Program-made: the position numbers and the translations under genes
IMG/VR virus record: IMGVR_UViG_3300045988_061891
DNA: 64,000 nt
Source: a virus
Reading direction: 5' to 3' (one strand)
In this document: positions 3,679 to 25,992 of the stretch, in pieces
How positions within the stretch are numbered: the first letter of the stretch is position 1
How the letters are laid out: each line of letters begins with the position of its first letter
The notes under the pieces: generated by a model
Databases searched by the model: none
Told to the model about the DNA's origin: nothing
What the model saw: the letters and a program-made list of their open reading frames with translations, nothing else

Positions 3679-4605
3679 TTACTTAATGTCCCAAGGACTT
3701 GAAGGAGCTGCAAATGGGTCAGCATCTGCATTGTCAGTGATAGTGGAACTCTTTACAGAATACTCATGGAATTCTACTGTTTCAAACTCAGTAGTGGCAT
3801 AAGCACCTGCATTTTTCCTCTCTTGTACATTGGCATCCAGCTTACTGTAATCAGATATACTGTTCTTCAAGAACATCTGAGTGAAAGCAGCTTGATACTG
3901 TCTGCCCTCATTGTCAGTTCTGATACCGAACAATATCTTAACCTTGTTGGTAGGTTGGAGGGAAAGAGCTCCTCTCAACTCAGAGAAGTCACCCTTGAAA
4001 TAGTCTTCAATGTGGTCAAGTCTACACTCTGAATCCTCTGGGTGGTCAACCATATACCACTTCTTCTCAGTGTTATTGTACCTCATCACAGAAGGAATGT
4101 TGAGGTAGGCAATCAGTAAGTTGGTAAGGTCCTCTTCACCTACATAGGCAGGTCTGTAGTCCTTGTCAAGATTGGCAGGACCATTGGCATACATAGGAAT
4201 CTCATGATTCTTGCATTCCTCGATAGTCACCCATGCAGTTCTACCATACTTGTCAATGACCTGTACTTTGGTTTTGTCTTTATTATACCTGTACCTCTTC
4301 TGAAGGAAGAGAGTCATACTGATAGGTTTGAGTTCAATACCTACCTTCTCAGGGTCAGGGAGTGCAAGGAAACTAAGCCTTACATTAGGATATTTCACCT
4401 TATTATCACCTTCAGTGACCTCTACAGTACCCACATATTCAGGTTCCTTGTCAAGAGGATTACCATAAATCTTCTCAAGCTGAGCCTTGTCAGGGTTGAG
4501 GCCTTTGATGAAGCAAGGAGCTACACCAATATACCTTTTGAAATCACCTTCTGTGGATTCTTTACCTTTGGCAATTGCCATGAATAAATAACCTTTGTTG
4601 TTCAT
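3679..4605 (-). CDS. putative ssDNA-binding protein (function tentative)
   Basis: ORF trimmed to MNNKGYLF (ATG 4605; alternative ATG 4581) because the listed start overlaps the upstream gene. Sits in the replication module and has an acidic/aromatic C-terminal tail ...DADPFAAPSSPWDIK. Confidence 0.45.
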   Translation of the reverse strand: MNNKGYLFMAIAKGKESTEGDFKRYIGVAPCFIKGLNPDKAQLEKIYGNPLDKEPEYVGTVEVTEGDNKVKYPNVRLSFLALPDPEKVGIELKPISMTLFLQKRYRYNKDKTKVQVIDKYGRTAWVTIEECKNHEIPMYANGPANLDKDYRPAYVGEEDLTNLLIAYLNIPSVMRYNNTEKKWYMVDHPEDSECRLDHIEDYFKGDFSELRGALSLQPTNKVKILFGIRTDNEGRQYQAAFTQMFLKNSISDYSKLDANVQERKNAGAYATTEFETVEFHEYSVKSSTITDNADADPFAAPSSPWDIK

Positions 4606-4639
4606 TTTGTAGTCTGTTGTTAGTTTATTGTTTATATTC

Positions 4640-5068
4640 TTATTCAAGTCCATTAAGAGGGTTGAAGGCTGCATCAGTAGCTGTAGTCTCCACTTCACCT
4701 ACCTTAGCCTCAGAGTCTATATCAAAGTCAGCTCCTGCACTATCTTCAGTAGGAGGAACCTCTACAGGTGCATGGAAAGTCAGTACCTGATTCTTGACTT
4801 GATACTTGCCTTCCTTATCCATCTTGGGAGTACCATCCTCATTAAACTGAGGCTCATATGTGCAAGTGATGAGGTCAATAGACCTGAAACCACCAGTCAT
4901 AGCCATAATACCAGCTTCACCACCATCAAGGATAGCTTGCTGGATAGTTCTTTCTTCTTGAAGTTTAGCAATCTTCTGGTCAATAGACTCAATCTTCTTC
5001 ATTGCGGGAAGTGAGTTCTTGAACTGCCTTTTGACAGCAGCAATTTCTCTAGTTGTTAATTCTTTCAT
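4640..5068 (-). CDS. hypothetical protein (N-terminal coiled coil)
   Basis: 142-aa ORF, tightly packed in the minus-strand operon. Confidence 0.6.
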   Translation of the reverse strand: MKELTTREIAAVKRQFKNSLPAMKKIESIDQKIAKLQEERTIQQAILDGGEAGIMAMTGGFRSIDLITCTYEPQFNEDGTPKMDKEGKYQVKNQVLTFHAPVEVPPTEDSAGADFDIDSEAKVGEVETTATDAAFNPLNGLE

Positions 5069-5085: not shown

Positions 5086-5766
5086 TTAGTTATAATATTC
5101 ATCCATTGCCTTTACAACAAGACCTAAGTCATTAGGGATGAAGTCTTGTTCAAACATATCAGCAGGAGATTTGGCAGGAATCTCCGCTCCACCTTCCATA
5201 CATCTATGAGTATAGAATCCATAGCTAGCCTCTCCTTTGTCATTGTACTTGACAGAAGAGAAGAGAGTCATAGGAACTACCTCGGCAGGATTATAGCTAT
5301 TGTCAATAAGCTTACCTACTGTAGAGGTCTTATATCCTACGATAGTATTGTCAGAGTAGATTTCCTCACAGTGCATAATAATGAACACATTGAGATTATC
5401 CCTCAGGTTCTCAGCAGTGCTGACAATACTTTGGAAGTGGGCTGCAATATCAACAAACTTATTAAAGCCAGATACTTTAGCAGTCTTGAAATACTCTTTT
5501 CTCATAATGTAGGTGGCATCCTCTATAATGATGTTTCTAATATGAGGGGCAGACTTATCTACACCTTGCATATAATTCATTATAGTGGCATAGTCATCTA
5601 CATTGAAAAGATTCTTATTCTCTTCATTATAGAGAGACTTACTTCCCTTAAAAGGAAGCCTCTTCTTCAATACATTGAAGATAACTGTTTCTTTGGGGTC
5701 AAGACCTTTGATACTTGAAGATTTACCAGTACCAGTCTTGCCCAGAATGAGACAAATGTTAGCCAT
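5086..5766 (-). CDS. P-loop NTPase (RecA/Sak4-like AAA ATPase)
   Basis: Walker A LILGKTGTGKSS at the N-terminus; Walker B-like NIIIEDATY. Confidence 0.7.
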   Translation of the reverse strand: MANICLILGKTGTGKSSSIKGLDPKETVIFNVLKKRLPFKGSKSLYNEENKNLFNVDDYATIMNYMQGVDKSAPHIRNIIIEDATYIMRKEYFKTAKVSGFNKFVDIAAHFQSIVSTAENLRDNLNVFIIMHCEEIYSDNTIVGYKTSTVGKLIDNSYNPAEVVPMTLFSSVKYNDKGEASYGFYTHRCMEGGAEIPAKSPADMFEQDFIPNDLGLVVKAMDEYYN

Positions 5767-6782
5767 TTTTCTTGTTAAGTAAAGATTTTATTGATTTAAT
5801 AAAGAAGGAAACACCCTTCTTCTTTGGTTGTTTTAGTGTCTGAATATAGGTATAGACTCTTTCAAGTCCTTCCTTATCATCAGCTCTTGGAAGTTCTGCA
5901 AATGTACTTGCAGCACCATCAAAGAACAGAGGGCATATGTTGTTACTTGCACCATAGTCTCTATCCTCAATAACCTCCATAAACCTGATAAAGTTACCAA
6001 ACTTTGTAATGTCATATCCCTCATATTCTCTCAGTCCATATTTATAAGGACTATAAAGACCAAGGACAAAGTTGGCATCCCTTGTTGTAGTCTTACAGTC
6101 TGCAAGACCATCAGAAGATGGCTTAATCTTATTGAGCTTCTGATTTTCTATACCTTCTTGAGCCTGTGCCTGATGTTGAATGAGAACAAAGATGTACTTG
6201 AGCTGATTTCTCAAAATTATACCATACTTGGCAAGTTTATCAATGTTCTCCATTTTCTTCATACCACTTTCAAGTGCAAGGTTTGAAGCATTGTCAACTA
6301 TAACAATCCTATATTCCTCAGGGTCATCTGGGGTATAAGGATTGTCAGAGTCAACTACTCTTCTCTTGGTAATTTTGCTATCATCAAGAGGGTCTACAAC
6401 ATCAACCTCCTTGAAGTTGAGATGTCCATGAGATAAGGCATAATCTCTGCACCTTTTATTAATACCAGTAGGATTCTTATCCTCATCAATGAACTCAACC
6501 ATCTCATTGAACTTATCAATGTATGGTTTATATCTCTCAGATTCAAGTAGTTCAAGAACCTTCTCATCAACAGGCCTCTCTTGGTCAGTGCTTCTTAAGT
6601 CAGTAGGAGATATTCTTATGTTGTCAAGCCTATATAGCAAATGACAATAGAACTCATCCCTCTTTGCAGAGGGGCTCATCTCCAATGTGAAATAAAGAAT
6701 CTTTACCTTGAGTTCGGGATGTTCCATAGAAAAGAATAAAGGTTCATAGACCAGCATATAGTCAGTGAATTTACTTTTTCCT
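5759..6782 (-). CDS. DnaB-like replicative DNA helicase, exon 2
   Basis: ORF 5759..6802 contains the DnaB-family motifs GKSKFT (second half of the P-loop), YFTLEMS, IVIVDNASNL and LIQHQAQAQ. It lacks an N-terminus and a proper start (GTG). The proposed exon boundary lies after intron-terminal G 6783. Confidence 0.75.
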
Positions 6783-7692
6783 CGTACTACTATAGTTTTC
6801 ACTACCAGATTACTCTGTTTGTAGTCTGGACTATGTCTTCACCCTTAGCTTTACCTATTAGGGTGCACCTGCATCTAGTCTCTGGGGCTGTAGCATTACC
6901 TACTATGCCTCCTCAAGTCAGTCAGTATTGTTTCCAATAAAGCCTTCGAGGATATTCAGGTGTAATAATATATTAGATTACTCTAATGCACGACATTGCA
7001 TATAATTCTTGTATTTAGTATTCTGCTTATTAGAGTTAATAGTTAAAGGAGGTAAATTTTCTAATCTGTATGAAAATCTATATCCCTTACATTGCTGATA
7101 TGTCCCATTAGTAACTCTACAAATACTAGACTCACTGATACCTAGTCTTCTAGCAGTATCTTTAAGCCCTAATGGATTCTCAAACAGCAATTTTCCCTCT
7201 AAATTATATACATATACTGTAACAGGATTAAAGTTCCATTCTAGTTTTCCTTCATTATGAAGTCTTCTTCTAGTGTCTCCTTGTTTTATCCTTGATTCTT
7301 TGGATAGAATATTTCTCTTAACTATTCTAGTTATGTTGTATTCTGCTCCAAATAAATCTATACAATATTGCTCTTTTTCTGTAAGATTGTCACAATCACA
7401 AAGTTCTAAGACAAACCATCTAAAATTACTCTCACCATACTTATCCCAAGCACTTTGCAAGTGAGGGTTCTGATGTTTATTATGCCTAAGTAAGGCAAAA
7501 TGTTTTAACAACCTTTGATATATGTTCTTTGAACTTCCTATATAGGTTTTGTGATTGATGATGTTCTCAATGCAGTATATACCAGATACTTTTAATTCCT
7601 TTGTAATCTTATTCATAATGTTTTATATTTTACTGCAAATATAAAACAAAATTTCCAAATATACAATAGAATAAATGAATTACTTAGCTTTT
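6783..7692 (-). mobile_element. group I self-splicing intron carrying a GIY-YIG homing endonuclease ORF
   Basis: Interrupts the helicase P-loop. The 3' 195 nt are GC-richer and contain R-like CAGAGACUAGAUGCAGG (6868-6886) and S-like GAAGACAUAGUCC (6828-6840) elements, giving P7 GACUA/UAGUC. The 5' exon ends in U and the intron ends in G. Confidence 0.7.
6978..7616 (-). CDS. GIY-YIG homing endonuclease (intron-encoded)
   Basis: SGIYCIENIINHKTYIGSSKNIYQRLLKH...SAWDKYGESNF...EKEQYCIDL matches the GIY-YIG, R and E/N motifs. The C-terminal region looks like an HTH DNA-binding domain. Confidence 0.8.
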   Translation of the reverse strand: MNKITKELKVSGIYCIENIINHKTYIGSSKNIYQRLLKHFALLRHNKHQNPHLQSAWDKYGESNFRWFVLELCDCDNLTEKEQYCIDLFGAEYNITRIVKRNILSKESRIKQGDTRRRLHNEGKLEWNFNPVTVYVYNLEGKLLFENPLGLKDTARRLGISESSICRVTNGTYQQCKGYRFSYRLENLPPLTINSNKQNTKYKNYMQCRALE

Positions 7693-7853
7693 ATCTTCTG
7701 ATTGGCAGTAATAACCAAGAACTTCTCCTGTTCTATTCCAGGAAACAACCTTCTAAACCTTTGGAAAGGGAATGGAATACAGTTATATTTACCATCAAGG
7801 ACCCTTTGTCTCCTAACTCGGAGCCTTTGGATGTCACTCTTTAACTTTCCCAT
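7693..7853 (-). CDS. DnaB-like replicative DNA helicase, exon 1
   Basis: Unlisted 57-codon ORF: MGKLKSDIQRLRVRRQRVLDGKYNCIPFPFQRFRRLFPGIEQEKFLVITANQKIKAK*. The ATG lies 2 nt after the upstream stop. Joining ...ANQK-AT to A-GGA-AAA-AGT gives VITANQKIGKSKFT, a perfect AxxxxGKS Walker A. Confidence 0.7.
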
Positions 7854-7855
7854 AG

Positions 7856-8446
7856 TTAGATAGTTGTTGATGTCCAGTCATCCCTCAACACTTCTTCCTG
7901 ACCTTCATTTTCAATGTATGTGAGAAGTTCCGAGGTGTTTTCTATGTTACCTTCAAGCCCTCTTGCATCTTTGAATATAAAGTATTTCAGAGTCCTCATA
8001 AACTGATAGTTACCATTGAAACTTTCTACATATTTTCGGGCTGCTGTAAGAATTTGGTCATTAGTGAAGTCTCCATATTTCTTGAAGAATAACTTGAGTC
8101 TTCTCACTATGATAGTGGCTCCGTCACTCCAATAATTATTGGTACCGTCCTTCTTTCCTTTGGGAAATACTTCTCTAAGTTCCTGGGCAAGACTTATCAG
8201 TCTTGCGTCAGTGTCTTTCGGGGTAGAATCGGCTATTATGCCAGTAATGACCTCTTTACCTTTAGTAGTAAGTCGTAGTGGCAATGATAGTAGAGTATTA
8301 CTCGGTTTCTTCACATACCCTTTGGCTCTCATTGACTTTTCAGCCTCTTCCAGGTCTAGACCACTACCTATAGCTAAGAGATACAATGCTTCACCTACTG
8401 ATACACCGAGGGCTTTACAAGCATCTTCCGTAAGTGTGATAGTCAT
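7856..8446 (-). CDS. hypothetical protein (replication-module, directly upstream of the helicase)
   Basis: ORF trimmed to MTITLTEDACK (ATG 8446) to avoid overlap with the SF2 helicase. Confidence 0.6.
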   Translation of the reverse strand: MTITLTEDACKALGVSVGEALYLLAIGSGLDLEEAEKSMRAKGYVKKPSNTLLSLPLRLTTKGKEVITGIIADSTPKDTDARLISLAQELREVFPKGKKDGTNNYWSDGATIIVRRLKLFFKKYGDFTNDQILTAARKYVESFNGNYQFMRTLKYFIFKDARGLEGNIENTSELLTYIENEGQEEVLRDDWTSTTI

Positions 8447-9644: not shown

Positions 9645-10128
9645 TACTGTTTACAATCCGTTTAAGTTTATGAATATATTTAGGGTCTTCTGCATATCCT
9701 ACCCTCTGAAGAAAACTATAGTAGTCTTCAGGAGGTTTATATCTCTTTTGCACCCACTCCTTATATGCTATAACACTCTTTGTCCAGTGGTCAAATCTAT
9801 GGTACCTATTAGTCCTACTATTGTATAGACCAAACAGATTATTATGTCTCAAACATCCTACTGATGTAAAGTGTCCTGTCTCAAGCAGTGCCTGAGCATA
9901 CACTATATCAGGGTGAGTGACATCATAATATTTAAGGGCATCTGCTAAGCCCTCTTTCATAGGTTTGTCCATAAATACTGGGACAGGGGTTATAGTGTCA
10001 GGAGGTGAAGTAACATCATGATTGGGTGGTCCAGCTTTATCTTCAAATTGGTGTATGAAGATAATACCAGCTGTACATATCCCAATCATCAATGCTACTT
10101 TGATGAAGTTTTTGATTCTTTCTGTCAT
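9601..10128 (-). CDS. membrane-anchored N-acetylglucosaminidase (FlgJ/LytD-type glucosaminidase domain)
   Basis: N-terminal TM segment ALMIGICTAGIIFI, then AQALLETGHFTS...NNLFGL, characteristic of the glucosaminidase family. Confidence 0.6.
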   Translation of the reverse strand: MTERIKNFIKVALMIGICTAGIIFIHQFEDKAGPPNHDVTSPPDTITPVPVFMDKPMKEGLADALKYYDVTHPDIVYAQALLETGHFTSVGCLRHNNLFGLYNSRTNRYHRFDHWTKSVIAYKEWVQKRYKPPEDYYSFLQRVGYAEDPKYIHKLKRIVNSNDKRRSLEGSKGNS

Positions 10129-11282
10129 CTTAGTTGTTTGATGTTTGATTCAATACTATCATTGTAGTAGACATGGTCTGGTACATAGTGTAGATTATCC
10201 ACAAGAGTATCAAGAATTTTCTCTTTCCCATGGATATTGTAATGAGGGGAGCCTGAGTTGTCAAGGTAATCCCAGCTATATATGCTATACTCCTCATTAT
10301 CTATGATATGAGTCATATCCATATGTGTAACAACTAAGTTAAGAGATATATTGTACTTCTTCACATAGTTGTCTATACAGTGCCTTTCATAGGCTCTGTT
10401 AAGGAGACCCATCTCAAGGATACCTGTCTTGAAGTTTCCCTGAAACTCATTGTCTATGTTAGACTCATATTTATCAGTCAGTTTATTAGGCTCTCTGAGC
10501 CTGTGTTTAGGTTCATAGCCATTACCATGTCTGGTAGTGTAAGTCCTAGTGACAAGGTACACCTCTGCATCCTTAAGGACAGAACTTCTGAGACCATTAA
10601 GTCCCACTCTTGAAGGAGTTACATTGGGGTATAGTCCACAGTCCATGTCAAGAAGCAACCCCTGTGTTCCCTCAAATATAAGAACATTATAGTCCTTTAT
10701 TGAGGGCTTATCGGAATATACTTCTGTAAGAATCTCAAGACAGGATTTCTTAAACATATCATCATATTTAGGAATCCTCTCTATCTTGTGATAGTTTGAC
10801 GCGCACTTAAGGATATACTCAGGCTTGTCCAGACTGAAAGAGACTCTTGTCCACTGACCATGTTTATACCTCTCAAATGTAGGATATATACCCTTGCCAC
10901 AAGTTCCATCTGATATTACCTTGCTGTTGTTTCTTCCAGCAAGAACATCATAGGGTGTGATAATTCTATGTACACCACGGAATAGCTTTGGAGACACTCC
11001 TTTACACTGTAGAGTTCTGAACTCATTCATAAGACATATGGGGTCCATATATACCTCTTCTGTATACATAGTAGGTACACCAAGTAATACACCACTTCCA
11101 AAAGAGGAACAGATATGCTCTGTTCCCCCATTGAAAATAGTATGTGCTGCTTGGGGACCACCTGAGAATCTTACCACAAGTGGTTTCTTCCCTTCTTCAA
11201 TAGCCTTTTTGCAAAGCCACTGAACAGTCACCCCTTTTCCTTCATCGCCAAAGGTGTGACCCAACACTATTTTAACTTCCAT
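10125..11282 (-). CDS. adenylosuccinate synthetase family protein (PurA-like; PurZ-like cannot be excluded)
   Basis: N-terminal GHTFGDEGKGVTVQWL P-loop, GGPQAAHTI (GHT-type His) and TRHGNGY. At 385 aa it is shorter than typical bacterial PurA. Confidence 0.65.
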   Translation of the reverse strand: MEVKIVLGHTFGDEGKGVTVQWLCKKAIEEGKKPLVVRFSGGPQAAHTIFNGGTEHICSSFGSGVLLGVPTMYTEEVYMDPICLMNEFRTLQCKGVSPKLFRGVHRIITPYDVLAGRNNSKVISDGTCGKGIYPTFERYKHGQWTRVSFSLDKPEYILKCASNYHKIERIPKYDDMFKKSCLEILTEVYSDKPSIKDYNVLIFEGTQGLLLDMDCGLYPNVTPSRVGLNGLRSSVLKDAEVYLVTRTYTTRHGNGYEPKHRLREPNKLTDKYESNIDNEFQGNFKTGILEMGLLNRAYERHCIDNYVKKYNISLNLVVTHMDMTHIIDNEEYSIYSWDYLDNSGSPHYNIHGKEKILDTLVDNLHYVPDHVYYNDSIESNIKQLR

Positions 11283-11355
11283 TTATTATATCTTGAGTTC
11301 TTGAGGAGCCAAATCCCCAAGCAACTCAAGATAACACCTATAAACCAAACTATAA

Positions 11356-12993: not shown

Positions 12994-13030
12994 AAAATTA
13001 ATATAAGGTGAATAAATGTTTTCTAAAAAT

Positions 13031-13139
13031 AGCTACTTAAGTGATACATTGACAGTGTATTGCATTAACCACTATGCTAATCATTCATGGCGAATAATAT
13101 AGGATTCGAACCTATGAAGTAATAGTATTGTAAGTAGCT
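13031..13139 (-). tRNA. circularly permuted tRNA-Asp(GUC)-like gene: the 3' half precedes the 5' half, bracketed by a 9-bp helix
   Basis: Minus strand reads AGCTACTTA-CAATACTATTACTTC-[ATAGG TTCGAAT CCTAT]-ATTATTC-G-CCA-T-[GAATGAT TA GCAT AGTGGTTA ATGC A ATACA CTGTCAA TGTAT]-CACT-TAAGTAGCT. The acceptor strands pair 7/7 (one G-U). The outer 9-mers are perfect complements. Confidence 0.6.
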
Positions 13140-13143
13140 GAAG

Positions 13144-13267
13144 TAAGGCAGAGAAGAATCGAACTTCTGTTATAGGGACCCATTTTATTAATATAATATA
13201 GTGTTGTAAGTATCTTTAGATACTATATATTTATTAACCTATGTCCTAACCACTAGACGACTGCCTT
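13144..13267 (-). ncRNA. tRNA-shaped RNA with the anticodon loop replaced by a 61-nt AU-rich hairpin
   Basis: Perfect acceptor AAGGCAG/CTGCCTT, D-arm GTCT AGTGGTTA GGAC, T-arm AGAAG TTCGATT CTTCT and stem ATAGG/CCTAT enclose 13177-13237. That insert contains the ACTTACAA box. Confidence 0.5.
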
Positions 13268-13287
13268 ATGAAATTGGCACTACTTTT

Positions 13288-13362
13288 TATGCACTGATGG
13301 AATTGAACCATCTCTAATTGTACCCAAATTACAATTGTCCTAACCAAGTAGACGAAACGCAG
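13288..13362 (-). tRNA. tRNA-Gln(UUG)
   Basis: Hand-folded cloverleaf: CTGCGTT TC GTCT ACTTGGTTA GGAC .. loop ATTTGGG .. GATGG TTCAATT CCATC AGTGCAT A. Confidence 0.7.
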
Positions 13363-13387
13363 AATTATTATTGTAAGTGCCAAAAAG

Positions 13388-13495
13388 TGGGGAAGGTAGG
13401 AGTCGAACCTACATTGAATAATTTAAAAGATTATTGCTTATTTATATGATATTGTAAGTACCATTAGATACTATGTCCGTTTTAGCTACTTCCCC
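13388..13495 (-). tRNA. tRNA-Lys(UUU)-like gene interrupted by a 34-nt insert between the D-arm and the anticodon arm
   Basis: GGGGAAG TA GCTA AAACGGACA TAGT A [insert 13435-13468] ATAAT CTTTTAA ATTAT TCAAT GTAGG TTCGACT CCTAC CTTCCCC A. The insert folds as ATGGTA-CTTACAA-TATCAT. Confidence 0.55.
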
Positions 13496-13512
13496 TTGTG
13501 TAGTCACTATTT

Positions 13513-13586
13513 ATGTACATGTTAGAATCGAACTAACTACCCTTGAATTACCAGTTCAATGCTCTAACCAAATGAGCTAATGTTAT
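13513..13586 (-). tRNA. tRNA-Thr(GGU), acceptor stem unpaired at 1-3:70-72
   Basis: TA GCTC ATTTGGTTA GAGC A TTGAA CTGGTAA TTCAA GGGTA GTTAG TTCGATT CTAAC. The acceptor ATAACAT/ATGTACA pairs only at positions 4-7. Confidence 0.55.
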
Positions 13587-13650
13587 TAGTATTGTAAGTG
13601 ACTTCATTCCAATTCTTCAATTGGACAATAATTTAACAAGCTTAAATTGC

Positions 13651-13774
13651 GCCTATCATAGGGATTCGAACCCACTTTTTACTGACCTCTTCATCTCATA
13701 CCTACCTAGGTCAGTATGAGATTGCACAGCTTTTGGAATTCTTAATATGTGCACTAATAAGAATTCATGATAGG
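13651..13774 (-). ncRNA. 124-nt tRNA-like RNA (acceptor-type terminal helix plus T-loop, expanded body)
   Basis: CCTATCA...TGATAGG is a perfect 7-bp terminal helix. T-loop GGGTTCGAATCCC. 9-bp hairpin GAATTCTTA/TAAGAATTC. Interleaved complements ATCTCATAC/GTATGAGAT and CTGACCT/AGGTCAG. Confidence 0.4.
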
Positions 13775-13783
13775 CCTTAGTAA

Positions 13784-13810
13784 GTATAGGAGGCATCACT
13801 CCTCCTATAC
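13784..13810 (-). other. 10-bp stem-loop (GTATAGGAGG / CCTCCTATAC) running into a TACTTACTAAGG box
   Basis: Perfect inverted repeat with a 7-nt loop and no U-tract. It lies between the vWA gene and the 124-nt RNA. Confidence 0.5.
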
Positions 13811-13816
13811 CTTTAT

Positions 13817-13876
13817 TGATACTTAATAGCATTGATATTAACTTTTAAATGAGCTATAAAAATGTTGTAAGTATCA
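13817..13876 (-). other. ACTTACAA-box unit: 9-bp bracket helix TGATACTTA / TAAGTATCA enclosing a 42-nt segment
   Basis: Same architecture as the brackets around the tRNAs, but the enclosed sequence has only an ATAGC/GCTAT hairpin. Confidence 0.4.
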
Positions 13877-13891
13877 TTGGCTTTTGAACTA

Positions 13892-15715
13892 TTAAAGCAC
13901 GTTTTCTCTTACTATATCATATCTATTACTCCTAAATAATGATTGTAAAGGAGTATAGACATCCATAATATCCATATCTTTGAAGTTAGTTAAGAACTGT
14001 TCAATCTGCGCTACATTAGCAGGGATATAAATCATGTTCTCAATACCTTCAAATCTGTCGATAGAAGCACTATTGAAACCCCAACCACCATCTACATCAA
14101 TAGCTACAATATATGGCTTAAATCCAAAGTATCTTTGACACTTCATCATAAAGGCATTCATTGAAGCCTCAGGAGACTTTAATGAGTTCCACTCACCATC
14201 GCTGATGATAGTCCATACAGGATAGTTCTTTAGAGCATCAAGTATCTGAGGATTATTCTGACATTCTTTGTGCAAATCATCAGGTATGTTACTGATGTAA
14301 GTACAACCACCTTGGAATACTGCCTTACAGAAGCTCTTGATAGATTGATAGTTCTCATAGAAACTCTTCTTAGGGTCAACAAAAGGAGTTTGCTTGGTTT
14401 TTACTGTTTCACTTCTGATGAAAGAGTTTACAGAGTTATTCTTTCTGTCTATACAAGTATGCCAGTGACTTCTACTATTGAAGAAACCAAGTAAGTTTCT
14501 ACCATCATCATCTGGATTCTTACATAGACATACAGAAGCTAAGAATGTAGCAAAGTTAAAGGGACTACCGCCCATAGAGCCCGAATCATCTATAATCACA
14601 AGACTATTATAAGGAAGATTAACCTTAGTCATGAATGTTTCAAGCTTTAATTTATCTACATTATCACAACAGATGTCATTATATAGCTCTTTGAAGTTAG
14701 TTGCTCCTACAGTAACTTTAGCCTGCTTTGCAACTTTCTTCAACTTGATTTTATCTTCCTCTGTAGCCTGTCCCTGTCTAACCTTTTCTTCTAGAACTCT
14801 TTGTTCAGCTTGCTTAGATTCCTTGTATTTCTCCCATTCAGCAAGCCAAGGCTGGAACTTAGAATATTTAGCTTCTTCAGTATCTTTAATTTTACTGTAA
14901 AGAATTCTGTTCTTAACTCTAAATCTTGCTTGTGAAGGAAGCTTGTCAAACCAATCAATAAATGATTGTTCGTCAAACTCATTGATTTTACCTGTAGAGA
15001 ACAGTACTGACTCGAGGTCACCATTATAATCCTTTCTCCATTTCCTGTAGCCTTTGAAGTTTGCATAGTTTTCGCTTACTTCATACTCCCAACCCATAAG
15101 CTCTGAGAGCATTATGAGTAACTTGACCTTATCTTCCATTACCTTTTTAGTTTCAGGAAGCATCTTTTTATGATTGCTTCTTTTACTTACTCTAGGAAGT
15201 GTCAAGAATTTAGCAACAAGAGTTTTATTGAAAGGATTATTACTGTTGATAACCTTATAGAGGTAGTTTACAATAACCTCTCTGTATTTTGCTTCAGCAA
15301 AGAGATTGTGTATTCTGGTAACTCTAGAACCCTTTGTCTGTACTCTATTTCTAAACAGTAAGTCAAAGCAAGTATATTCATTGAACAAACCTGCTTCAAG
15401 GAACTTCACAAATTGAGTTTGACGTTTCTTCCACATCCACTCAAGGACTACTTGAAAACCTTCTCTATTGGCATTACCACCACTATCCTTCTTAATACCC
15501 TTAAAGATATTATGTTGTCTAGCTGTAATATCACCAATTGAGAAAAGTAAACTAAAGAACATTTGCTTATGCTCCTTATTCCATCGAACTTCTGACCAAC
15601 AAGCATCAAGTAATGCTGTGTCAATCGTGTTGCCTACACTCTGAAAGAGTTTAAGGCAATTCTTTAACCCATAAAAAGGATTATCGTTACTTTTATTTAA
15701 CTTTACCTGTACCAT
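13892..15715 (-). CDS. DUF2828-like helical domain plus von Willebrand factor A (vWA) domain protein
   Basis: 607 aa. MIDAS motif in VIIDDSGSMGG. The N-terminal ~370 aa are helical (NPFYGL...LLDACW...FSIGDITARQ...LEWMW), resembling DUF2828-type proteins (family name recalled, not searched). Confidence 0.65.
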   Translation of the reverse strand: MVQVKLNKSNDNPFYGLKNCLKLFQSVGNTIDTALLDACWSEVRWNKEHKQMFFSLLFSIGDITARQHNIFKGIKKDSGGNANREGFQVVLEWMWKKRQTQFVKFLEAGLFNEYTCFDLLFRNRVQTKGSRVTRIHNLFAEAKYREVIVNYLYKVINSNNPFNKTLVAKFLTLPRVSKRSNHKKMLPETKKVMEDKVKLLIMLSELMGWEYEVSENYANFKGYRKWRKDYNGDLESVLFSTGKINEFDEQSFIDWFDKLPSQARFRVKNRILYSKIKDTEEAKYSKFQPWLAEWEKYKESKQAEQRVLEEKVRQGQATEEDKIKLKKVAKQAKVTVGATNFKELYNDICCDNVDKLKLETFMTKVNLPYNSLVIIDDSGSMGGSPFNFATFLASVCLCKNPDDDGRNLLGFFNSRSHWHTCIDRKNNSVNSFIRSETVKTKQTPFVDPKKSFYENYQSIKSFCKAVFQGGCTYISNIPDDLHKECQNNPQILDALKNYPVWTIISDGEWNSLKSPEASMNAFMMKCQRYFGFKPYIVAIDVDGGWGFNSASIDRFEGIENMIYIPANVAQIEQFLTNFKDMDIMDVYTPLQSLFRSNRYDIVRENVL

Positions 15716-15737
15716 TTGCTAATGTTTTATTTTATTT

Positions 15738-15745
15738 TTGTAAGT
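15738..15745 (-). promoter_or_regulatory. ACTTACAA box about 20 nt upstream of the vWA gene start (candidate promoter element)
   Basis: Minus strand reads CGTTACTTACAAAAATAAAATAAAACATTAGCAAATG. The same 8-mer occurs 6 more times in 13128-13872. Confidence 0.35.
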
Positions 15746-15800
15746 AACGTAGTTAGGATATTCTTTTTATCTTTGAACTATATATGTCTTCCTTATACTA

Positions 15801-16241
15801 CTAGAAAGTTTCAGTTTCACTCATTGCTGAAAGCTCTGCTTCAAGTTCCTTAATCTTATCCTCAGGAGTTTTCTGAGACTCTTTAAGTTCTTTAAGTTTG
15901 GCTATAAGTTCAGCTTTCTTTTGAGCGTTTTCTGCAACTTCCATTTTGTATCTCTTATAACCTATTACTAGGTTTACGAGTTCTTTATACTCTTTAGCAG
16001 TATCTAACTGCTTTGCAGTAGAGCTACTTGCAACCCACTCATCTTGACTTTCAAGTTGTTTAATCCTGTTAGACAAAGCAAGCCTGATACTATTAAGAGA
16101 GTTTATTGTAGTACCATGAAGTAACTCAACTACATTGATAGGTGTGCCAAGCTTAGTATGTACTGTATTGTTATCAAGTAACATAATAAGCAGCAATGAA
16201 CACATCTTATCAAAGTGTTCTTTTGTGAAATTAATTGTCAT
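15801..16241 (-). CDS. hypothetical protein (C-terminal coiled coil)
   Basis: 146-aa ORF. Confidence 0.6.
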   Translation of the reverse strand: MTINFTKEHFDKMCSLLLIMLLDNNTVHTKLGTPINVVELLHGTTINSLNSIRLALSNRIKQLESQDEWVASSSTAKQLDTAKEYKELVNLVIGYKRYKMEVAENAQKKAELIAKLKELKESQKTPEDKIKELEAELSAMSETETF

Positions 16242-16252
16242 AGTTCTTTAAT

Positions 16253-16879
16253 TTAATAAGTTATAATTGCAAAATCTTCTAGGTCACCATATTTAGCTTC
16301 AGTAATGAGCATACCGAAGCATCTTCCGAAGTGTTCCGCAATTTCCCTAGATGCGCAGCCTAAGAATCCAACATGGCTAGTAGCACAGCCTACTCCATCC
16401 CTAGAATCAAAGTCACCTACGCCATCAAAAATACTAAAAGAAATAGAACCACCAAAAACGTTATATAGAATTCCTTTATTCTTGATTTTACCTATTATCT
16501 CCATTCTATTTGCTTTAATCATATTACTATAATAAGTACAATCTTCAATTGCAAATTGATTGTCAGGATACCACATGGAAGAACCTTTTGTAAGATATAA
16601 ACCTTGTCCCAAATTAAGTGCTTTTCTGATGATGTTCAACTTAAACATAGCAGCAGATGCTCTACTAAATGTGGCTATATTTCTGGCGGTAATGTTTGCA
16701 GCAATATAATCGTAATTAAGAGCAACACAAGCATCTTTGAATGTTTTAATGTTCTTAAAGTTGTATACTAACTCATCTTTGTTGAAGGCTTGAAGTGCAA
16801 TCTCTTTAAGAGATTCATTTCCACTGTTATACCACTCTTTAGCCTTATCAAGAGTGACAGTTACATTTCTTTTTTCCAT
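16253..16879 (-). CDS. hypothetical protein, paralog of 20272..20943
   Basis: MEKRNVTVTLDKAKEWYNSGNESLKEIALQAF... aligns along its length with MEKRSITITIKKAREWYNSGNEALKEAALQAF... Confidence 0.7.
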   Translation of the reverse strand: MEKRNVTVTLDKAKEWYNSGNESLKEIALQAFNKDELVYNFKNIKTFKDACVALNYDYIAANITARNIATFSRASAAMFKLNIIRKALNLGQGLYLTKGSSMWYPDNQFAIEDCTYYSNMIKANRMEIIGKIKNKGILYNVFGGSISFSIFDGVGDFDSRDGVGCATSHVGFLGCASREIAEHFGRCFGMLITEAKYGDLEDFAIITY

Positions 16880-17014
16880 ATATTTCTATTTTAATTATGT
16901 AATGTATTAGTAGCTTCTCCTTTGATATAGTTACCTCTTTTTTCACAGAGTTTAGCTACACAATATTTACATTCTCTAGTACAATCAAAGTATTCCATAT
17001 ACAAGTTTCATATT

Positions 17015-17200
17015 TTATTCCCAAATATATGCTTCAAACTCGCATTTAAGTTCCATCTCAGTCTGTTTAGCCTCTTCAAGATATATACTTAAAAAGAGTG
17101 AACAATCATTGAAGTTATTAATGTCTCCATCAAACTCAATATATAACCATAGTTCACAGTACTTTACTGCGGACCGTTGCTTTTCAGTTGACTTTCTCAT
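17015..17200 (-). CDS. hypothetical small protein
   Basis: 61-aa ORF overlapping the upstream gene's stop (ATGA-type junction). Confidence 0.45.
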   Translation of the reverse strand: MRKSTEKQRSAVKYCELWLYIEFDGDINNFNDCSLFLSIYLEEAKQTEMELKCEFEAYIWE

Positions 17201-17493
17201 ATATTTAGGAATTTTTTAATTTTATACCAAATACTAACTCTCTTTTTCTCTATTATACCTTTATTTTTTCTGTTTCTAACAATGCCTTTGGGACCTACTG
17301 TTAAAAAGCTTGCACCTGCATTGTTATCAGTAGAAGTTAGTATATAATACCAGTGGTATAGACATGCCCCTATAGTTCTGTTGATTTTAGATGAGGCTTG
17401 TCTACAGGCTTCCTTGATATTAAGAGGATTAGCTTGAATAGCCTGGACTAGAATTGTTTCTTCCTCTTTAGTCCATCTTCTTCTTGTTGTCAT
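17197..17493 (-). CDS. Myb/SANT-like DNA-binding protein
   Basis: RRRWTKEEETILVQAIQANP...CLYHWYYIL fits the SANT/Myb W-x-EE...W pattern. Confidence 0.5.
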   Translation of the reverse strand: MTTRRRWTKEEETILVQAIQANPLNIKEACRQASSKINRTIGACLYHWYYILTSTDNNAGASFLTVGPKGIVRNRKNKGIIEKKRVSIWYKIKKFLNI

Positions 17494-17523
17494 TTCATTA
17501 TTATTTTTAGTTTAAATGATTAG

Positions 17524-17608
17524 TACCTCCAGTGGGATTTGAACCCACACAGCTACAATAGCCAAGGGAGTTTAAGTCCCTCATGTCTACCAATTCCATC
17601 ATAGAGGC
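17524..17608 (-). tRNA. tRNA-Leu(UAA), type II
   Basis: GCCTCTA TG ATGGAATTGGTAGACAT .. loop CTTAAAC .. long variable arm .. GTGGG TTCAAAT CCCAC TGGAGGT A. Confidence 0.75.
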
Positions 17609-17695
17609 AAATAATACTACTAAACGCAAAAAGGCTTATTATATCCTTTCATTGCTTTTACAGAATACGTCTGTACCTATATAGTAGTATTGTAG

Positions 17696-17768
17696 TGCAT
17701 CCAGTGAGATTCGAACTCACAACTTACAGTTTAGAAGACTGTTACTCTGTCCATTGAGTTATGGATGC
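17696..17768 (-). tRNA. tRNA-Arg(UCU)
   Basis: GCATCCA TA ACTC AATGGA.. ACAGT CTTCTAA ACTGT .. GTGAG TTCGAAT CTCAC TGGATGC A. Confidence 0.75.
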
Positions 17769-17794
17769 CCTTAGTTATGTATATATCTCATAAC

Positions 17795-18004
17795 TTAAAC
17801 AGATTGAAAATCTTTGGTTATATCTTCATCACTTTGTGAAATATACTCATAATAAGTTTTTTTATTAAAGAGAGGGTCGTTTAGAGCTTCTTTAAAAGAC
17901 TCCCATTCATCAACATAATGACATGCTAAAGCTGTTGCAAAAGCTCTATCTCTAAGTAGGTTAGCTAATTTTTCTTCTGATATAAGTTTCATTTTCTTAC
18001 TCAT
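17795..18004 (-). CDS. hypothetical small protein
   Basis: 69-aa ORF. Confidence 0.5.
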   Translation of the reverse strand: MSKKMKLISEEKLANLLRDRAFATALACHYVDEWESFKEALNDPLFNKKTYYEYISQSDEDITKDFQSV

Positions 18005-18010
18005 TTTAGA

Positions 18011-18601
18011 TTACAAGAAAGCCTCGTTATAAAGATTTACAAATTGCTTGCCAAATTGCTCTGCACGCTCAGGTGTCTTAAAACAAAGTCGAGAACCGAA
18101 ATTATACGCATTTGTGGGTGTGTTAAAAGTATTCATAAACACGAACCCCGCAGTATTCTTGTCATAATCGAACCAAGGAATCCATTTGTCTTGACGCCGA
18201 TTCGAGAAATCTGGAACAAAATTATCTTCCTTGTTCCACGCTTCTGCGATGGTAAACAGTTTGTTCAAGGCAATCAACGCTTCAATGTGCTTAGGGTTGA
18301 TGTCGGTCACAAGTCTTTTGACAACTCCAGACCTGGGAATGTATCCTACATTGGGTTTCATTCCAAGTGCTTCTCTTGCACTCTCAAAATCCGTAATGAC
18401 TTCATTTACATCTTTAACATCTACTTCTTCAAGAGTGAAATCAAACAACAATAAATAGTTATTATCTCCAATATGCAAAAATTCATTATGGATGCGAATA
18501 TACCACATCAAGAAGTCTCCAGCTTCTTCACGTGAATTAAACTCACCTTTAATATCAGGACACGTACTTCCATTTGCATACTTAATTATATACTTTTTCA
18601 T
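18011..18601 (-). CDS. hypothetical protein
   Basis: 196-aa ORF. Confidence 0.6.
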   Translation of the reverse strand: MKKYIIKYANGSTCPDIKGEFNSREEAGDFLMWYIRIHNEFLHIGDNNYLLLFDFTLEEVDVKDVNEVITDFESAREALGMKPNVGYIPRSGVVKRLVTDINPKHIEALIALNKLFTIAEAWNKEDNFVPDFSNRRQDKWIPWFDYDKNTAGFVFMNTFNTPTNAYNFGSRLCFKTPERAEQFGKQFVNLYNEAFL

Positions 18602-18804
18602 TACTTATCGATTTCTGATTTAATAGATTCTACATATTTAACTATTCTCGCATATTCACGGCCGCTTCTACTATTGTCAGCATAAGCTCTTCTAATAAGC
18701 TCTTCTCCAGTACCAAGAAAACAACCAACTTTCCACATATTCCAGAGTTTCCTCTGAAAACTTGTATTTCTTTTCCATATTTTACTCTGTTTATACAAAA
18801 TCAA
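18601..18804 (-). CDS. hypothetical small protein
   Basis: 67-aa ORF; its stop overlaps the next start. Confidence 0.45.
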   Translation of the reverse strand: MILYKQSKIWKRNTSFQRKLWNMWKVGCFLGTGEELIRRAYADNSRSGREYARIVKYVESIKSEIDK

Positions 18805-19381
18805 ATAAGTTAAGTTTCTCTTTCATTCTAAGCTTGTTCTTCTTATTCATCCTAAGTGCATATAAGAATGGCATTATCTTCTCATACCATCTTGCGTCTT
18901 TTGCCATAGAACTTACCCATTGGTTATTTAGATTATCTGGAACATCAGTTTTGAATGTATAGAGTTTCTTCCAGTCCCCTTTACGGTTGCCACCAATGAA
19001 TTTGAGTTTTGGATAACACATTTCAAAAGTTTTACACATTTTAGCGAATTGTCTACATTCTGATTCAGAGTTCCATTTTTCAAGTATAATTCTTACATAC
19101 ATATCATCTTTGGTAAAGTCTGTAAAATCGCGTATATTGCGAACTATTTTATGTATATCAACACATGACTTAAAATTAATCAATCCATGGGCAAATTCCC
19201 ACTGTTTTGATTTGACGTTGAAATAAATGCGCAAATCAAATACTCTTGCTCCATTCTTGAATTGCTCTTCAATATTATGGTTTTGACATCTTGCGGAAAG
19301 CAAGCCTGGAAACAACCACCAATTTTTAATCGGCAAATATGTCATTGTATTATGACTGCCATATACTATTTGTTCATTCAT
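18791..19381 (-). CDS. PI-PLC X-domain-like phosphodiesterase (tentative)
   Basis: YGSHNTMTY...ARCQNHNIEEQFKNGARVFDLRIYF...WEFAHGL resembles the catalytic His/Arg pattern of PLC-like TIM-barrel phosphodiesterases. Confidence 0.45.
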   Translation of the reverse strand: MNEQIVYGSHNTMTYLPIKNWWLFPGLLSARCQNHNIEEQFKNGARVFDLRIYFNVKSKQWEFAHGLINFKSCVDIHKIVRNIRDFTDFTKDDMYVRIILEKWNSESECRQFAKMCKTFEMCYPKLKFIGGNRKGDWKKLYTFKTDVPDNLNNQWVSSMAKDARWYEKIMPFLYALRMNKKNKLRMKEKLNLFDFV

Positions 19382-19401
19382 AATATTTATTATTGATTAA
19401 G

Positions 19402-19475
19402 TGGGCCTATAGAGATTTGAACTCTAAACCTTCACATTATGAGTGTGCTGCTCTAACCACTTGAGCTATAGGCCC
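19402..19475 (-). tRNA. tRNA-Met or Ile2 (anticodon CAU)
   Basis: GGGCCTA TA GCTC AAGTGGTTA GAGC A GCACA CTCATAA TGTGA .. TAGAG TTCAAAT CTCTA TAGGCCC A. Confidence 0.75.
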
Positions 19476-19487
19476 TAAAAGATTCTT

Positions 19488-19718
19488 TTACTTTAGTTTA
19501 TCAATTATCCACTTTGTTCCTGTAATAATAGGAAGGTCATCTGCTGTTATGTGTATTCTACATAGTGTGATTAATCCTATGTTTACAATAAATGCAACAA
19601 TAAGATACCCGAAGCCTCCCTCTACAATACTATCTATACTAGCTATTGTTAGCATAAATATCGTTGCTGTATACCAAAACAAAATGGCTTTTAATGTTAA
19701 TTTAAGTCTAGTTTTCAT
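19488..19718 (-). CDS. small membrane protein
   Basis: 76 aa with two TM segments. Confidence 0.5.
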   Translation of the reverse strand: MKTRLKLTLKAILFWYTATIFMLTIASIDSIVEGGFGYLIVAFIVNIGLITLCRIHITADDLPIITGTKWIIDKLK

Positions 19719-19748
19719 TGTTAATTGTTTTAAGTTTTAAATTGTTTG

Positions 19749-19820
19749 TACCCTCAGATGGACTCGAACCATCATTTAGAGTTTAGGAAACTCTTGTTCT
19801 ATCCCTTGAACTATGAGGGC
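19749..19820 (-). tRNA. tRNA-Arg(CCU)
   Basis: GCCCTCA TA GTTC AAGGGATA GAAC A AGAGT TTCCTAA ACTCT .. GATGG TTCGAGT CCATC TGAGGGT A. Confidence 0.75.
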
Positions 19821-23896: not shown

Positions 23897-23967
23897 TGCC
23901 ACTTGGTGTAATGGTAACACATCAGTTTTTGGCACTGAGTTTAGAGGTTCAACCCCTCTAGTGGCAA
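23897..23967 (+). tRNA. tRNA-Gln(UUG)
   Basis: TGCCACT TG GTGT AATGGTA ACAC A TCAGT TTTTGGC ACTGA GTTT AGAGG TTCAACC CCTCT AGTGGCA A. Confidence 0.75.
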
Positions 23968-23972
23968 CAAAT

Positions 23973-24044
23973 GCTCCCTTAGTATAAAGGATAATGCAAT
24001 AGTCTTCTAAACTATGAATAAAGGTTCGATTCCTTTAGGGAGTA
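23973..24044 (+). tRNA. tRNA-Arg(UCU)
   Basis: GCTCCCT TA GTAT AAAGGATA ATGC A ATAGT CTTCTAA ACTAT GAAT AAAGG TTCGATT CCTTT AGGGAGT A. Confidence 0.75.
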
Positions 24045-24134
24045 CAAAGTTGTTTGTAATAGACTAAATTTTGTGCAAAGATAACGAAGAATTCATTAAC
24101 CTGCCCAGCCTGAGAAGGTGCAAGTAGGGTGCAT

Positions 24135-24208
24135 GATGCCTTAGAGTAATTGGTCAACTCGTCACTCTTTCAAGGTGAAGATTATGGGTTCAAGTCCCAT
24201 AGGCATTA
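24135..24208 (+). tRNA. tRNA-Glu(UUC)
   Basis: GATGCCT TA GAGT AATTGGTCA ACTC G TCACT CTTTCAA GGTGA AGATT ATGGG TTCAAGT CCCAT AGGCATT A. Confidence 0.75.
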
Positions 24209-24215
24209 CATATAT

Positions 24216-24289
24216 AGCTCATGAAGTGTAATGGTTTTGCATATCACACTGTCAATGTGAGGGAAGGGGTTCAATTCCCCCATGGGCTG
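24216..24289 (+). tRNA. tRNA-Asp(GUC)
   Basis: Anticodon arm TCACA CTGTCAA TGTGA and T-loop GGGG TTCAATT CCCC. The acceptor register is ambiguous by 1 nt. Confidence 0.65.
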
Positions 24290-24323
24290 CTGGTTATGTG
24301 ATAAAGGCTCAGAGGAGCCGACT

Positions 24324-24415
24324 GGAAGTTTAATCAGTAGGAGCTGAAAGATTCTCTTGGAAAAGAGAGGATTGACCTATGGAAAGGTATAGGGGTTCGA
24401 GTCCCCAAACTTCCT
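24324..24415 (+). tRNA. type II tRNA-Ser(GGA)-like with an 8-nt anticodon loop
   Basis: GGAAGTT/AACTTCC acceptor, D-arm TCAG TAGGAG CTGA, stem TTCTC/GAGAG enclosing TTGGAAAA, variable arm ACCT ATGGAA AGGT, T-loop GGGG TTCGAGT CCCC. Confidence 0.5.
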
Positions 24416-24417
24416 CT

Positions 24418-24615
24418 ATGATTCAAATTTTTAGAAAAGAAGGGTGGGTACTCAACCCTAATGATAAAGTAGTCAACTCAATACTTAAGAGAGTTGAACA
24501 GAACAATGGATTATGTCCCTGTCAGAATGACTCTGAGGATAAGCACTGCCCTTGTTCTAATTACAGAGTACTAGACCACTGTTGCTGTGGTCTATATAAG
24601 AAACTTGGAGAGTAA
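24418..24615 (+). CDS. ferredoxin-thioredoxin reductase catalytic-subunit-like small protein
   Basis: ORF trimmed to MIQIFRKEGW because the upstream part is a tRNA. Cys pattern LCPCQ...HCPC...HCCCGLY resembles the FTR-beta CPC..CPC..CHC signature. Confidence 0.5.
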   Translation: MIQIFRKEGWVLNPNDKVVNSILKRVEQNNGLCPCQNDSEDKHCPCSNYRVLDHCCCGLYKKLGE

Positions 24616-24694
24616 ATCTACTAGGAGTAGGACTGTCCTGCTAAGACAAGTGGTCATGTAAAAAGTGGCTTTGGTTCGAGTCCAATACTCTCCT
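24607..24694 (+). tRNA. tRNA-Ser(GCU), type II; its 5' end overlaps the last codons of the FTR-like ORF
   Basis: GGAGAGT/ACTCTCC perfect acceptor, anticodon arm TGTC CTGCTAA GACA, long variable arm, T-loop TTGG TTCGAGT CCAA. Confidence 0.65.
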
Positions 24695-24700
24695 CTATAT

Positions 24701-24773
24701 ATAGTAGTAGCTCAATTGGCAGAGTCCTAGGTTTGGGACCTAGATGTTGAAGGTTCGAGTCCTTTCTACTATA
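24701..24773 (+). tRNA. tRNA-Pro(UGG)
   Basis: ATAGTAG TA GCTC AATTGGCA GAGT C CTAGG TTTGGGA CCTAG ATGTT GAAGG TTCGAGT CCTTT CTACTAT A. Confidence 0.75.
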
Positions 24774-24780
24774 CTAAAAT

Positions 24781-24853
24781 GGGCTCTTAGTTAAGCTGGC
24801 TATAACACCTGCCTTGCAAGCAGGAGTCCTGGGTTCAAGTCCCAGTTAGTCCA
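24781..24853 (+). tRNA. tRNA-Ala(UGC)
   Basis: G3:U70 present. CCTGC CTTGCAA GCAGG; CTGGG TTCAAGT CCCAG. Acceptor pairs 6:67 and 7:66 are mismatched. Confidence 0.65.
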
Positions 24854-25217: not shown

Positions 25218-25220
25218 TAC

Positions 25221-25294: not shown

Positions 25295-25296
25295 CT

Positions 25297-25980: not shown

Positions 25981-25992
25981 CTATTAAAATAT

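Follow-up and report, generated by a model that had tools for sequence, protein, structure and literature searches.

A predicted group I intron with a GIY-YIG endonuclease gene in the Walker A motif of a crAss-like phage DnaB-type helicase

The helicase gene and its interruption

The viral record IMGVR_UViG_3300045988_061891 from IMG/VR was analysed as a 64,000-nt stretch, called the window here; all coordinates refer to it. It contains a DnaB-type helicase gene of a crAss-like phage which is interrupted by what is very probably a group I intron with a GIY-YIG endonuclease gene. The helicase, the intron and the endonuclease open reading frame (ORF) are all on the minus strand. Read along that strand, a 57-codon ORF (7853..7680) is followed by 63 non-coding nt, a 212-aa ORF (7616..6978), 195 non-coding nt, and the body of a 347-aa ORF (6802..5759). 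The 57-codon ORF encodes a C-terminus of ..FLVITANQKIKAK*. The 347-aa ORF, for which there is a possible GTG start at 6802, begins ..VVRGKSKFT, and its conserved part runs from ..GKSKFT. The gene can be divided as follows.

7693..7853, minus strand: helicase exon 1, 53 codons plus 2 nt, ending ..CAG AAG AU (from the ORF list; aligns with the N-termini of uninterrupted homologues and is collinear with L001, the intron-less contig described below)
6783..7692, minus strand: predicted group I intron of 910 nt, interrupting codon 54 (Ile) in phase 2, within the Walker A motif AxxxxGKS (a clean insertion relative to L001, with U before it and G as its last base in all copies)
5759..6782, minus strand: helicase exon 2, A followed by GGA AAA AGU .., 340 codons plus stop (from the ORF list, the homologue alignment and L001)

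Joining U7693 to A6782 gives ..VITANQK-I-GKSKFT.. and a protein of 394 aa. The predicted exon junction reads CAGAAGAU-AGGAAAAAG in the window and AAAAGGU-AGGUAAAUC in phage PhiCrAssBcn18. A megablast of the region against a phage collection returned one record only, at 74% identity, and a protein-level search was needed. Among 5.8 billion proteins, the spliced product has hundreds of full-length homologues, several with a DnaB_C domain (PF03796). One of these, P0001, is an uninterrupted protein of 394 aa that matches 100% of the query length at 99% identity. The junction was inspected in an alignment of the 120 best homologues, of which 118 span it. Every one of the 118 reads ANQK-[I/V]-[G/C]K[S/T], with I or V at residue 54. 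Alternative junctions would give Arg and are excluded because the homologues have I or V here, matching the Ile formed from AU and A.

The Walker A Gly at residue 55 (window codon 6781-6779) is replaced by Cys in 20 of the 120 homologues, giving AxxxxCK[ST].

The contig encoding P0001 (L001) is an intron-less allele of the same locus. The window and L001 are 96-98% identical across 9 kb, and the 910-nt block is found in the window alone. When the window sequence is spliced as predicted, 1153 of 1185 nt are identical to L001 without a gap, including all 30 nt on each side of the junction. Only four of the 32 exon substitutions change an amino acid; 28 are silent. It is thus confirmed that 7692..6783 is a clean insertion in the helicase gene. 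A7692 and A6782 are the same base, and hence DNA comparison places the insertion to 1 nt (7692..6783 or 7691..6782). The former boundary was chosen because the arrangement of U before and G last is found in every related copy.

A preliminary description, made from the window alone, had proposed the same ORF layout and the same U7693/A6782 junction restoring AxxxxGKS, and all of its sequence statements hold. Its appeal to the group I rule (exon ending in U, intron ending in G) is borne out in all related copies, and the comparison with uninterrupted homologues which it suggested agrees with the 394-aa product. The range it gave, 6783-7853, is better read as the intron (6783-7692) together with exon 1 (7693-7853).

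The ribozyme core

Group I ribozymes are recognised by a set of paired (P) and joining (J) segments. The following are assigned in the window copy.

6969..6990, minus strand: P2 hairpin, UGCAUUAGA-GUAA-UCUAAUAUA (recovered by RNAalifold; both sides change in 6 of 9 pairs across copies)
6828..6962, minus strand: catalytic core (from covariation counts, RNAalifold, the RF00028 alignment and the family model)
6962-6957 with 6871-6866, minus strand: P3 of the core
6952-6946 with 6916-6910, minus strand: P4 of the core
6943-6921, minus strand: P5 and P5a of the core
6909-6886, minus strand: P6 of the core
6882 and 6880-6876 with 6833-6828, minus strand: P7 of the core
6865-6840, minus strand: P8 of the core
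6839-6834, minus strand: J8/7 of the core
6786..6825, minus strand: P9 domain, ACUAC/GUAGU around P9a (CAGA-GUAA-UCUG) and P9b (GUAGU-GAAA-ACUAU) (from covariation)
6783, minus strand: terminal guanosine (omega G), at which the family model ends; G in 23 of 23 unique copies at the aligned position

The structure was assessed using copies from other genomes. There are 34 copies beyond the window (three from GenBank and 31 from IMG/VR), which give 23 unique cores; 17 non-redundant cores, running from the internal guide sequence (IGS) to the last G, make up the structure alignment. With no structure supplied, RNAalifold recovers P2, P3, P4, P5, P5a, P6, P9, P9a and P9b from these 17 cores, and 24 of the 46 pairs are compensatory. 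The full topology, including the P3/P7 pseudoknot, has 58 pairs. Of its cells 95.1% are paired, compared with 31.6-41.7% when the 3' partners are slid by one to three columns, and both sides change in 26 pairs. The covariation score is 0.358 (0.150 in shuffles); none of 500 shuffles matches the observed alignment on all five measures. Compensatory changes are seen in P7 (GACUA/UAGUC vs GGCCA/UGGUC), in P3 (CACCUG/CAGGUG vs UCCCUG/CAGGGA) and in P9 (ACUAC/GUAGU vs ACCAC/GUGGU). The change in P9 is from U-A to C-G, and both sides change in all four P9a pairs and in four of the five P9b pairs.

A family covariance model was built from 15 relatives, with the window sequence left out. It finds one match to the element, at 6995..6783 (193.5 bits, E=6e-53), which covers the full model and ends on G6783; just one pair in 52 is non-standard. 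A second match, at 2672-2753, is dismissed as noise (10 bits, E=0.25). The window has a single occurrence of the 23-nt core motif (0 expected from 100 shuffles). Four hairpins (P2, P5a, P9a and P9b) have GNRA loops. In the window copy all four are intact, as are J8/7, P7 and the omega G. Its P2 contains a C.A mismatch and its P5 a bulge.

The general Rfam model for group I introns, RF00028, also aligns over its full length, to 7014..6803, at 20.5 bits (E=0.015). Its P3, P4, P6, P7, J8/7 and P9 columns align; P7, J8/7 and P9 do so with high confidence. The elements CAGAGACUAGAUGCAGG and GAAGACAUAGUCC, in the 195 nt past the ORF, are placed at the P7/J8-7 columns with high posterior probability; they had been picked out earlier as R-like and S-like sequences able to form P7. 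The covariance-model check proposed at the same time came out in favour of the intron: the family model matches strongly, and RF00028 matches at full length but below threshold.

There is no P7.1 or P7.2 between P3' and P8; in all copies P3' (6871-6866 in the window) abuts P8 (6865-6840). Subgroup IA2, to which the T4 td, nrdB and sunY type belongs, is ruled out by this absence.

P1, the internal guide sequence and the splice sites

The P1 helix, in which the IGS pairs with the end of the 5' exon, had been left unassigned in the preliminary description. It can now be placed as follows.

7692..7695, minus strand: P1 5' strand, G-A-U|A across the 5' splice site, with U7693 in a U.G wobble (pairs with IGS UGUC)
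6992..6995, minus strand: IGS, U-G-U-C, with G6994 paired to U7693 (homologous to the UGCC directly before P2 in the ORF-less copies L023 and L005)
7677..7688, minus strand: P1 extension, 5' strand, GC 7688-7687 and GUAAUUC 7683-7677 (pairs with GC 6999-6998 and GAAUUAU 7008-7002)
6998..7008, minus strand: P1 extension, 3' strand, GAAUUAU .. GC (from complementarity and the minimum free energy fold)

The IGS is partnered by A7692, U7693 (the wobble), A7694 and G7695. In the window and in L007, UGUC occurs with GAU|A; in all other copies UGCC occurs with GGU|A. The difference falls at exon position -2 and represents a compensatory change across the splice site. Where the ORF is missing, P3 is immediately preceded by CACUGCCGUGU and a hairpin capped by GUAA. 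Where the ORF is present, this unit of IGS and P2 supplies its last codons, and the window reads CAAUGUCGUGC-AUUAGA-GUAA-UCUAAU.

A minimum free energy fold of an ORF-deleted construct recovers both the P1 extension and the core helices. The 5' strand of the extension contains the in-frame stop UAA (7682-7680) which closes the exon-1 frame. In the genome cr111_1 an unrelated complementary pair, UUUAGAA/UUCUAAA, is found at this position. The endonuclease ORF therefore sits in loop L1, which the extended P1 closes; the 5' peripheral loop foreseen for it is thus that of P1.

Two other assignments were considered. The sequence UUUUGUUUU (7651-7643) could form 9 bp with AAGAU|AAAA and was a candidate IGS. 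It is missing from the ORF-less copies L023 and L005, which carry UGCC 5' of P2, and UGUC/UGCC is preferred because only this sequence covaries with the exon. The conserved U-rich block containing UUUUGUUUU more likely belongs to endonuclease expression. A P2 formed across the ORF, between UAUAUUUGG and UCUAAUAUA, is ruled out by L006 and L023, where P2 is a local GUAA-capped hairpin.

The endonuclease gene

Two features are associated with the endonuclease.

6978..7616, minus strand: ORF of a predicted GIY-YIG homing endonuclease of 212 aa, placed in loop L1 (the P1 extension, IGS and 5' strand of P2 share sequence with its final codons)
7634..7651, minus strand: conserved UUUUGUUUUAUAUUUGCA, whose end is 17 nt ahead of the endonuclease start codon (kept in four diverged ORF-containing copies)

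The 212-aa ORF matches the GIY-YIG family PF01541 at 42.9 bits (E=6.3e-11; cutoff 22.6) and PHROG homing-endonuclease families (E=1e-21). Its matches in the PDB are limited to the I-TevI catalytic domain (1mk0/1ln0, E ~1e-7). Aligned to 1mk0, the ORF keeps the tyrosines of GIY and YIG as well as the Arg, and it has Glu opposite an Ala of that chain. The C-terminal module has matches below cutoff to NUMOD1 (18.3 bits; cutoff 22.8) and to I-HmuI_NUMOD-like (20.3; cutoff 27). The ORF is full length, as in relatives, and its stop UAA (6980-6978) falls within the P2 GUAA loop. It can be described as an I-TevI-like GIY-YIG homing endonuclease with an intact predicted domain, and would be expected to have cleavage activity. 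There are no paralogues elsewhere in the window.

The conserved UUUUGUUUUAUAUUUGCA may be a promoter of the endonuclease ORF itself. It includes TATATTTG, which resembles the Bacteroidota -7 promoter box, TAnnTTTG.

A CNNNG motif, CTTGG, is present at 4134-4138 of L001 (7720-7716 in the window), 27 to 23 nt before the insertion site. I-TevI cuts its target at such a distance, about 23-25 nt upstream; the motif is expected at about 1 in 16 positions and may be there by chance.

L001 has a free-standing GIY-YIG/NUMOD1 gene (800 nt; 5276-5980) between the helicase gene and an AAA_24 ATPase gene. It shares only 37% identity over 60 aa with the intron-encoded enzyme. In the window the helicase and AAA_24 ATPase genes overlap (5759/5766).

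Related copies and mobility

A tblastn search identified three GenBank Crassvirales genomes in which the helicase match begins only at residue 55. These are cr112_1 (Kehishuvirus), cr111_1 (Lahndsivirus) and the cultured PhiCrAssBcn18 (L004, OQ221553), all members of the Steigviridae. In each, the GIY-YIG ORF and a truncated 'replicative DNA helicase' are annotated as separate coding sequences. The inserts are 900-950 nt long, that of PhiCrAssBcn18 being 950 nt, and interrupt the same codon, with U before and G last. Scanning IMG/VR for the conserved P7/P3' motif brought in 31 further loci, the majority at the helicase P-loop site.

Several states of the P-loop site are represented. It is empty in L001 and carries an intron with an ORF in the window; in L034 the endonuclease ORF has a 268-nt deletion, and L023 and L027 have an ORF-less intron of 242 nt. 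This series (empty, ORF-containing, broken-ORF and ORF-less) corresponds to the expected life cycle of a mobile intron. The presence of the intron in the window and its absence from L001, with flanks 96-98% identical, is a footprint of mobility.

The same ribozyme family is found at other sites. A second DnaB site (..NPTG|) is occupied in L005, L015 and L024. In L035 a member lies just after the P-loop of an AAA_24 ATPase, and in L014 one lies in another gene; L018 and L028 have a member in motif VI of a SNF2-type Helicase_C domain. The fragment of the L035 ORF upstream of the core that was searched has no match to the GIY-YIG family.

A more distant helicase in L030 (IMGVR_UViG_3300045988_008409) reads ..SVTKG|GKSQF... 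Here the intron seems to be shifted by one base along the codon grid, to a later position: exon 1 ends on a complete codon, and GGU has no A ahead of it. Different group I introns, above Rfam gathering, are present in the crAss-like contigs L005 (4046-4316, plus strand, 69.8 bits) and L024 (3168-3417, minus strand, 64.8 bits), a few kb from the ribozyme-family members. The PhiCrAssBcn18 helicase has a second interruption at ~3763-4997 (OQ221553) which encodes a LAGLIDADG_2 protein (PF03161, E=4e-29), and the helicase is annotated as three separate coding sequences. Rfam gives no intron match at E<=0.01 in this segment.

Proposed mechanism and alternative explanations

With high probability, the element at 7692..6783 is a group I intron that is mobile and that splits codon 54 (phase 2) of the DnaB-family replicative helicase gene of a crAss-like phage, where the protein has its Walker A motif (ANQK-I|GKS). 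From its sequence we infer catalysis, splicing in vivo and endonuclease activity. Splicing would begin when the pre-mRNA folds and the IGS U-G-U-C (6995-6992) pairs with G-A-U|A (7695-7692), with the U.G wobble at the cleavage site. Exogenous guanosine, held in P7 of the P3-P9 core, would then attack after U7693. G6783 would next fill the guanosine site, and the exons would be ligated to AU-A GGA AAA AGU, encoding the 394-aa helicase. During co-infection the endonuclease would cut intron-less alleles such as L001, and recombinational repair would copy the intron in (homing).

Some points weigh against this reading. The RF00028 score is far under the gathering score of 50, although this is a curated cutoff and not a biochemical property; in addition, the ORF comes between the core and the P1 5' strand. 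Clear family members also fall short with this model: the one in L035 scores 39.3 bits, and those in L023 and L004 have no match at E<=0.01. The low score therefore reflects the reach of the model rather than the element. P7, P6 and parts of P3 and P4 are near-invariant, so that these pairs contribute little covariation signal, and the cell counts are inflated by close kinship among many of the copies. The exon side of P1 has just 3 bp, with one further bp in the intron. P10 consists only of A6782-U6995 in the window and of 2 bp (AG/CU) in copies with CACUGCC. With P1 and P10 so short, splice-site selection must lean on the P1 extension, P9 and the omega G. Finally, splicing itself is a prediction from sequence comparison.

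The helicase gene might instead have been split by a free-standing endonuclease gene, with the 57-aa and ~340-aa pieces translated apart and reassembled without RNA splicing. Both pieces are open, the second having a possible GTG start. This phage group does have free-standing GIY-YIG genes, as just downstream of the helicase in L001, and the GenBank annotators list homologous loci as separate coding sequences. However, the break disrupts a P-loop codon after its second base, and a group I fold with covariation is formed by the 195 nt past the ORF together with the last codons of the ORF. The same RNA also exists at this site in an ORF-less form (L023), IGS and exon covary, and the boundaries (U before, G last) are constant. 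A plain gene insertion would predict none of these features, and a split gene is accordingly considered highly improbable. An intron that no longer splices, leaving an inactivated helicase in a phage which uses another, would fit with the short P1 and P10, the mismatch in P2 and the bulge in P5. Against this, the window copy departs from the family model by a single pair in 52 even though it did not contribute to that model. All four GNRA loops, J8/7, P7 and the omega G are intact and the endonuclease ORF is full length. The exons are under purifying selection relative to L001, as seen from the 28 silent substitutions among 32. A dead intron is thus very unlikely.

Other intervening elements can also occupy such sites. 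Inteins in the P-loop of DnaB are known, as in DnaBi1 of M. smegmatis (PMC6195587). An intein is ruled out here by the stop at 7682-7680, four codons past the junction, and by an insert that is not in frame throughout. A group II intron fits no better: the insert lacks a reverse transcriptase ORF, and 6600-7950 has no match at E<=10 to the Rfam group II models. The probability of either element is negligible.

A broader view of the group I family can be put forward only tentatively, and is rather doubtful as a whole. It may be a distinct, compact, Crassvirales-specific lineage outside the Rfam model which has been retargeted, via small IGS changes, to at least five sites, with a switch between endonuclease translation and P1/P2 folding that would set production of the homing enzyme against that of the helicase. 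Of the at least five sites occupied by the family, three fall in conserved motifs of NTPases (Walker A of DnaB, Walker A of AAA_24 and motif VI of SNF2). If this view is right, endonuclease translation and P1/P2 formation would be mutually exclusive, because the ORF runs through the P1 extension, the IGS and the P2 5' strand.

Comparison with known systems

Group I introns with GIY-YIG endonucleases are classic elements of phages, and T4 td with I-TevI is the type case. In td the ORF is in the P6 region, and the ribozyme belongs to subgroup IA2, with P7.1/P7.2. The window intron is like td in being a phage group I intron in a DNA-metabolism gene with a GIY-YIG endonuclease in a peripheral loop. 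It also shares an early in-frame stop past the 5' splice site and a P7/J8-7 of the GACUA / AUAGUC type. Unlike td, it has the ORF in L1, overlapping the IGS and P2; P3' abuts P8, and the ORF-less form is just 242 nt. The host gene also differs, being a DnaB-type helicase and not thymidylate synthase, and the endonuclease has 212 aa with sub-threshold NUMOD matches. As an element type the window intron is well known; it is a textbook case and no surprise.

According to Yutin et al. 2021 (PMC7886860), group I introns are dense in crAss-like phages, and a later review says the same. Those introns were found via endonuclease domains, and alpha-gamma genomes were said to lack such insertions (PMC7886860). 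The window intron is from the same virus order, and resembles those introns (PMC7886860) in being a self-splicing type with an endonuclease ORF; theirs are in core replication and structural genes. ATP_43b, an intron host in that study (PMC7886860), also carries a member of the window ribozyme family (L035). In contrast, DnaB helicase is not among the hosts named by Yutin et al. (PMC7886860), no ribozyme structure is given there, and the GenBank carriers identified here are Steigviridae. No description of a DnaB-helicase intron or of the structure of the window ribozyme was found in the searchable literature.

The DnaBi1 intein sits in the P-loop of mycobacterial DnaB (PMC6195587). Like DnaBi1, the window element is mobile and interrupts Walker A of a DnaB-family helicase, and the ATPase cannot form until it is removed. 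The intein lies before the P-loop Ser and is removed at the protein level, whereas the window element lies two codons earlier and is predicted to be removed at the RNA level. With respect to Rfam, the window match spans the whole of RF00028, yet the lineage is effectively beyond the reach of that model.

These comparisons have practical consequences. The helicases of the window phage and of at least three GenBank crAss-like genomes, cr112_1, cr111_1 and PhiCrAssBcn18, are misread as truncated proteins that have lost half of the P-loop; recognition of the intron gives a normal 394-aa helicase in the window phage. The documented group I introns of the Crassvirales are extended to DnaB helicase and to Steigviridae-type phages. 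Surveys which use Rfam or endonuclease domains alone would under-count such introns, the ORF-less 242-nt forms above all. PhiCrAssBcn18 grows on Bacteroides intestinalis DSM 108646, and splicing is therefore directly testable.

Other features of the window

The window has an extra 1.16 kb relative to L001 at 10129-11288. It was considered as another intron and rejected, as it is an adenylosuccinate synthetase gene. The 385-aa ORF (10125-11282, minus strand) matches PF00709 (E=3e-30), and L001 has just ~210 nt at this position; it looks like an accessory metabolic gene which has recently been gained or lost. There are 24 tRNA genes at the Rfam gathering threshold, located at 13009-19820 (minus strand) and 23897-27607 (plus strand), the majority clustered in a dense array (23.9-27.6 kb). 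This is a large complement for a phage of ~100 kb.

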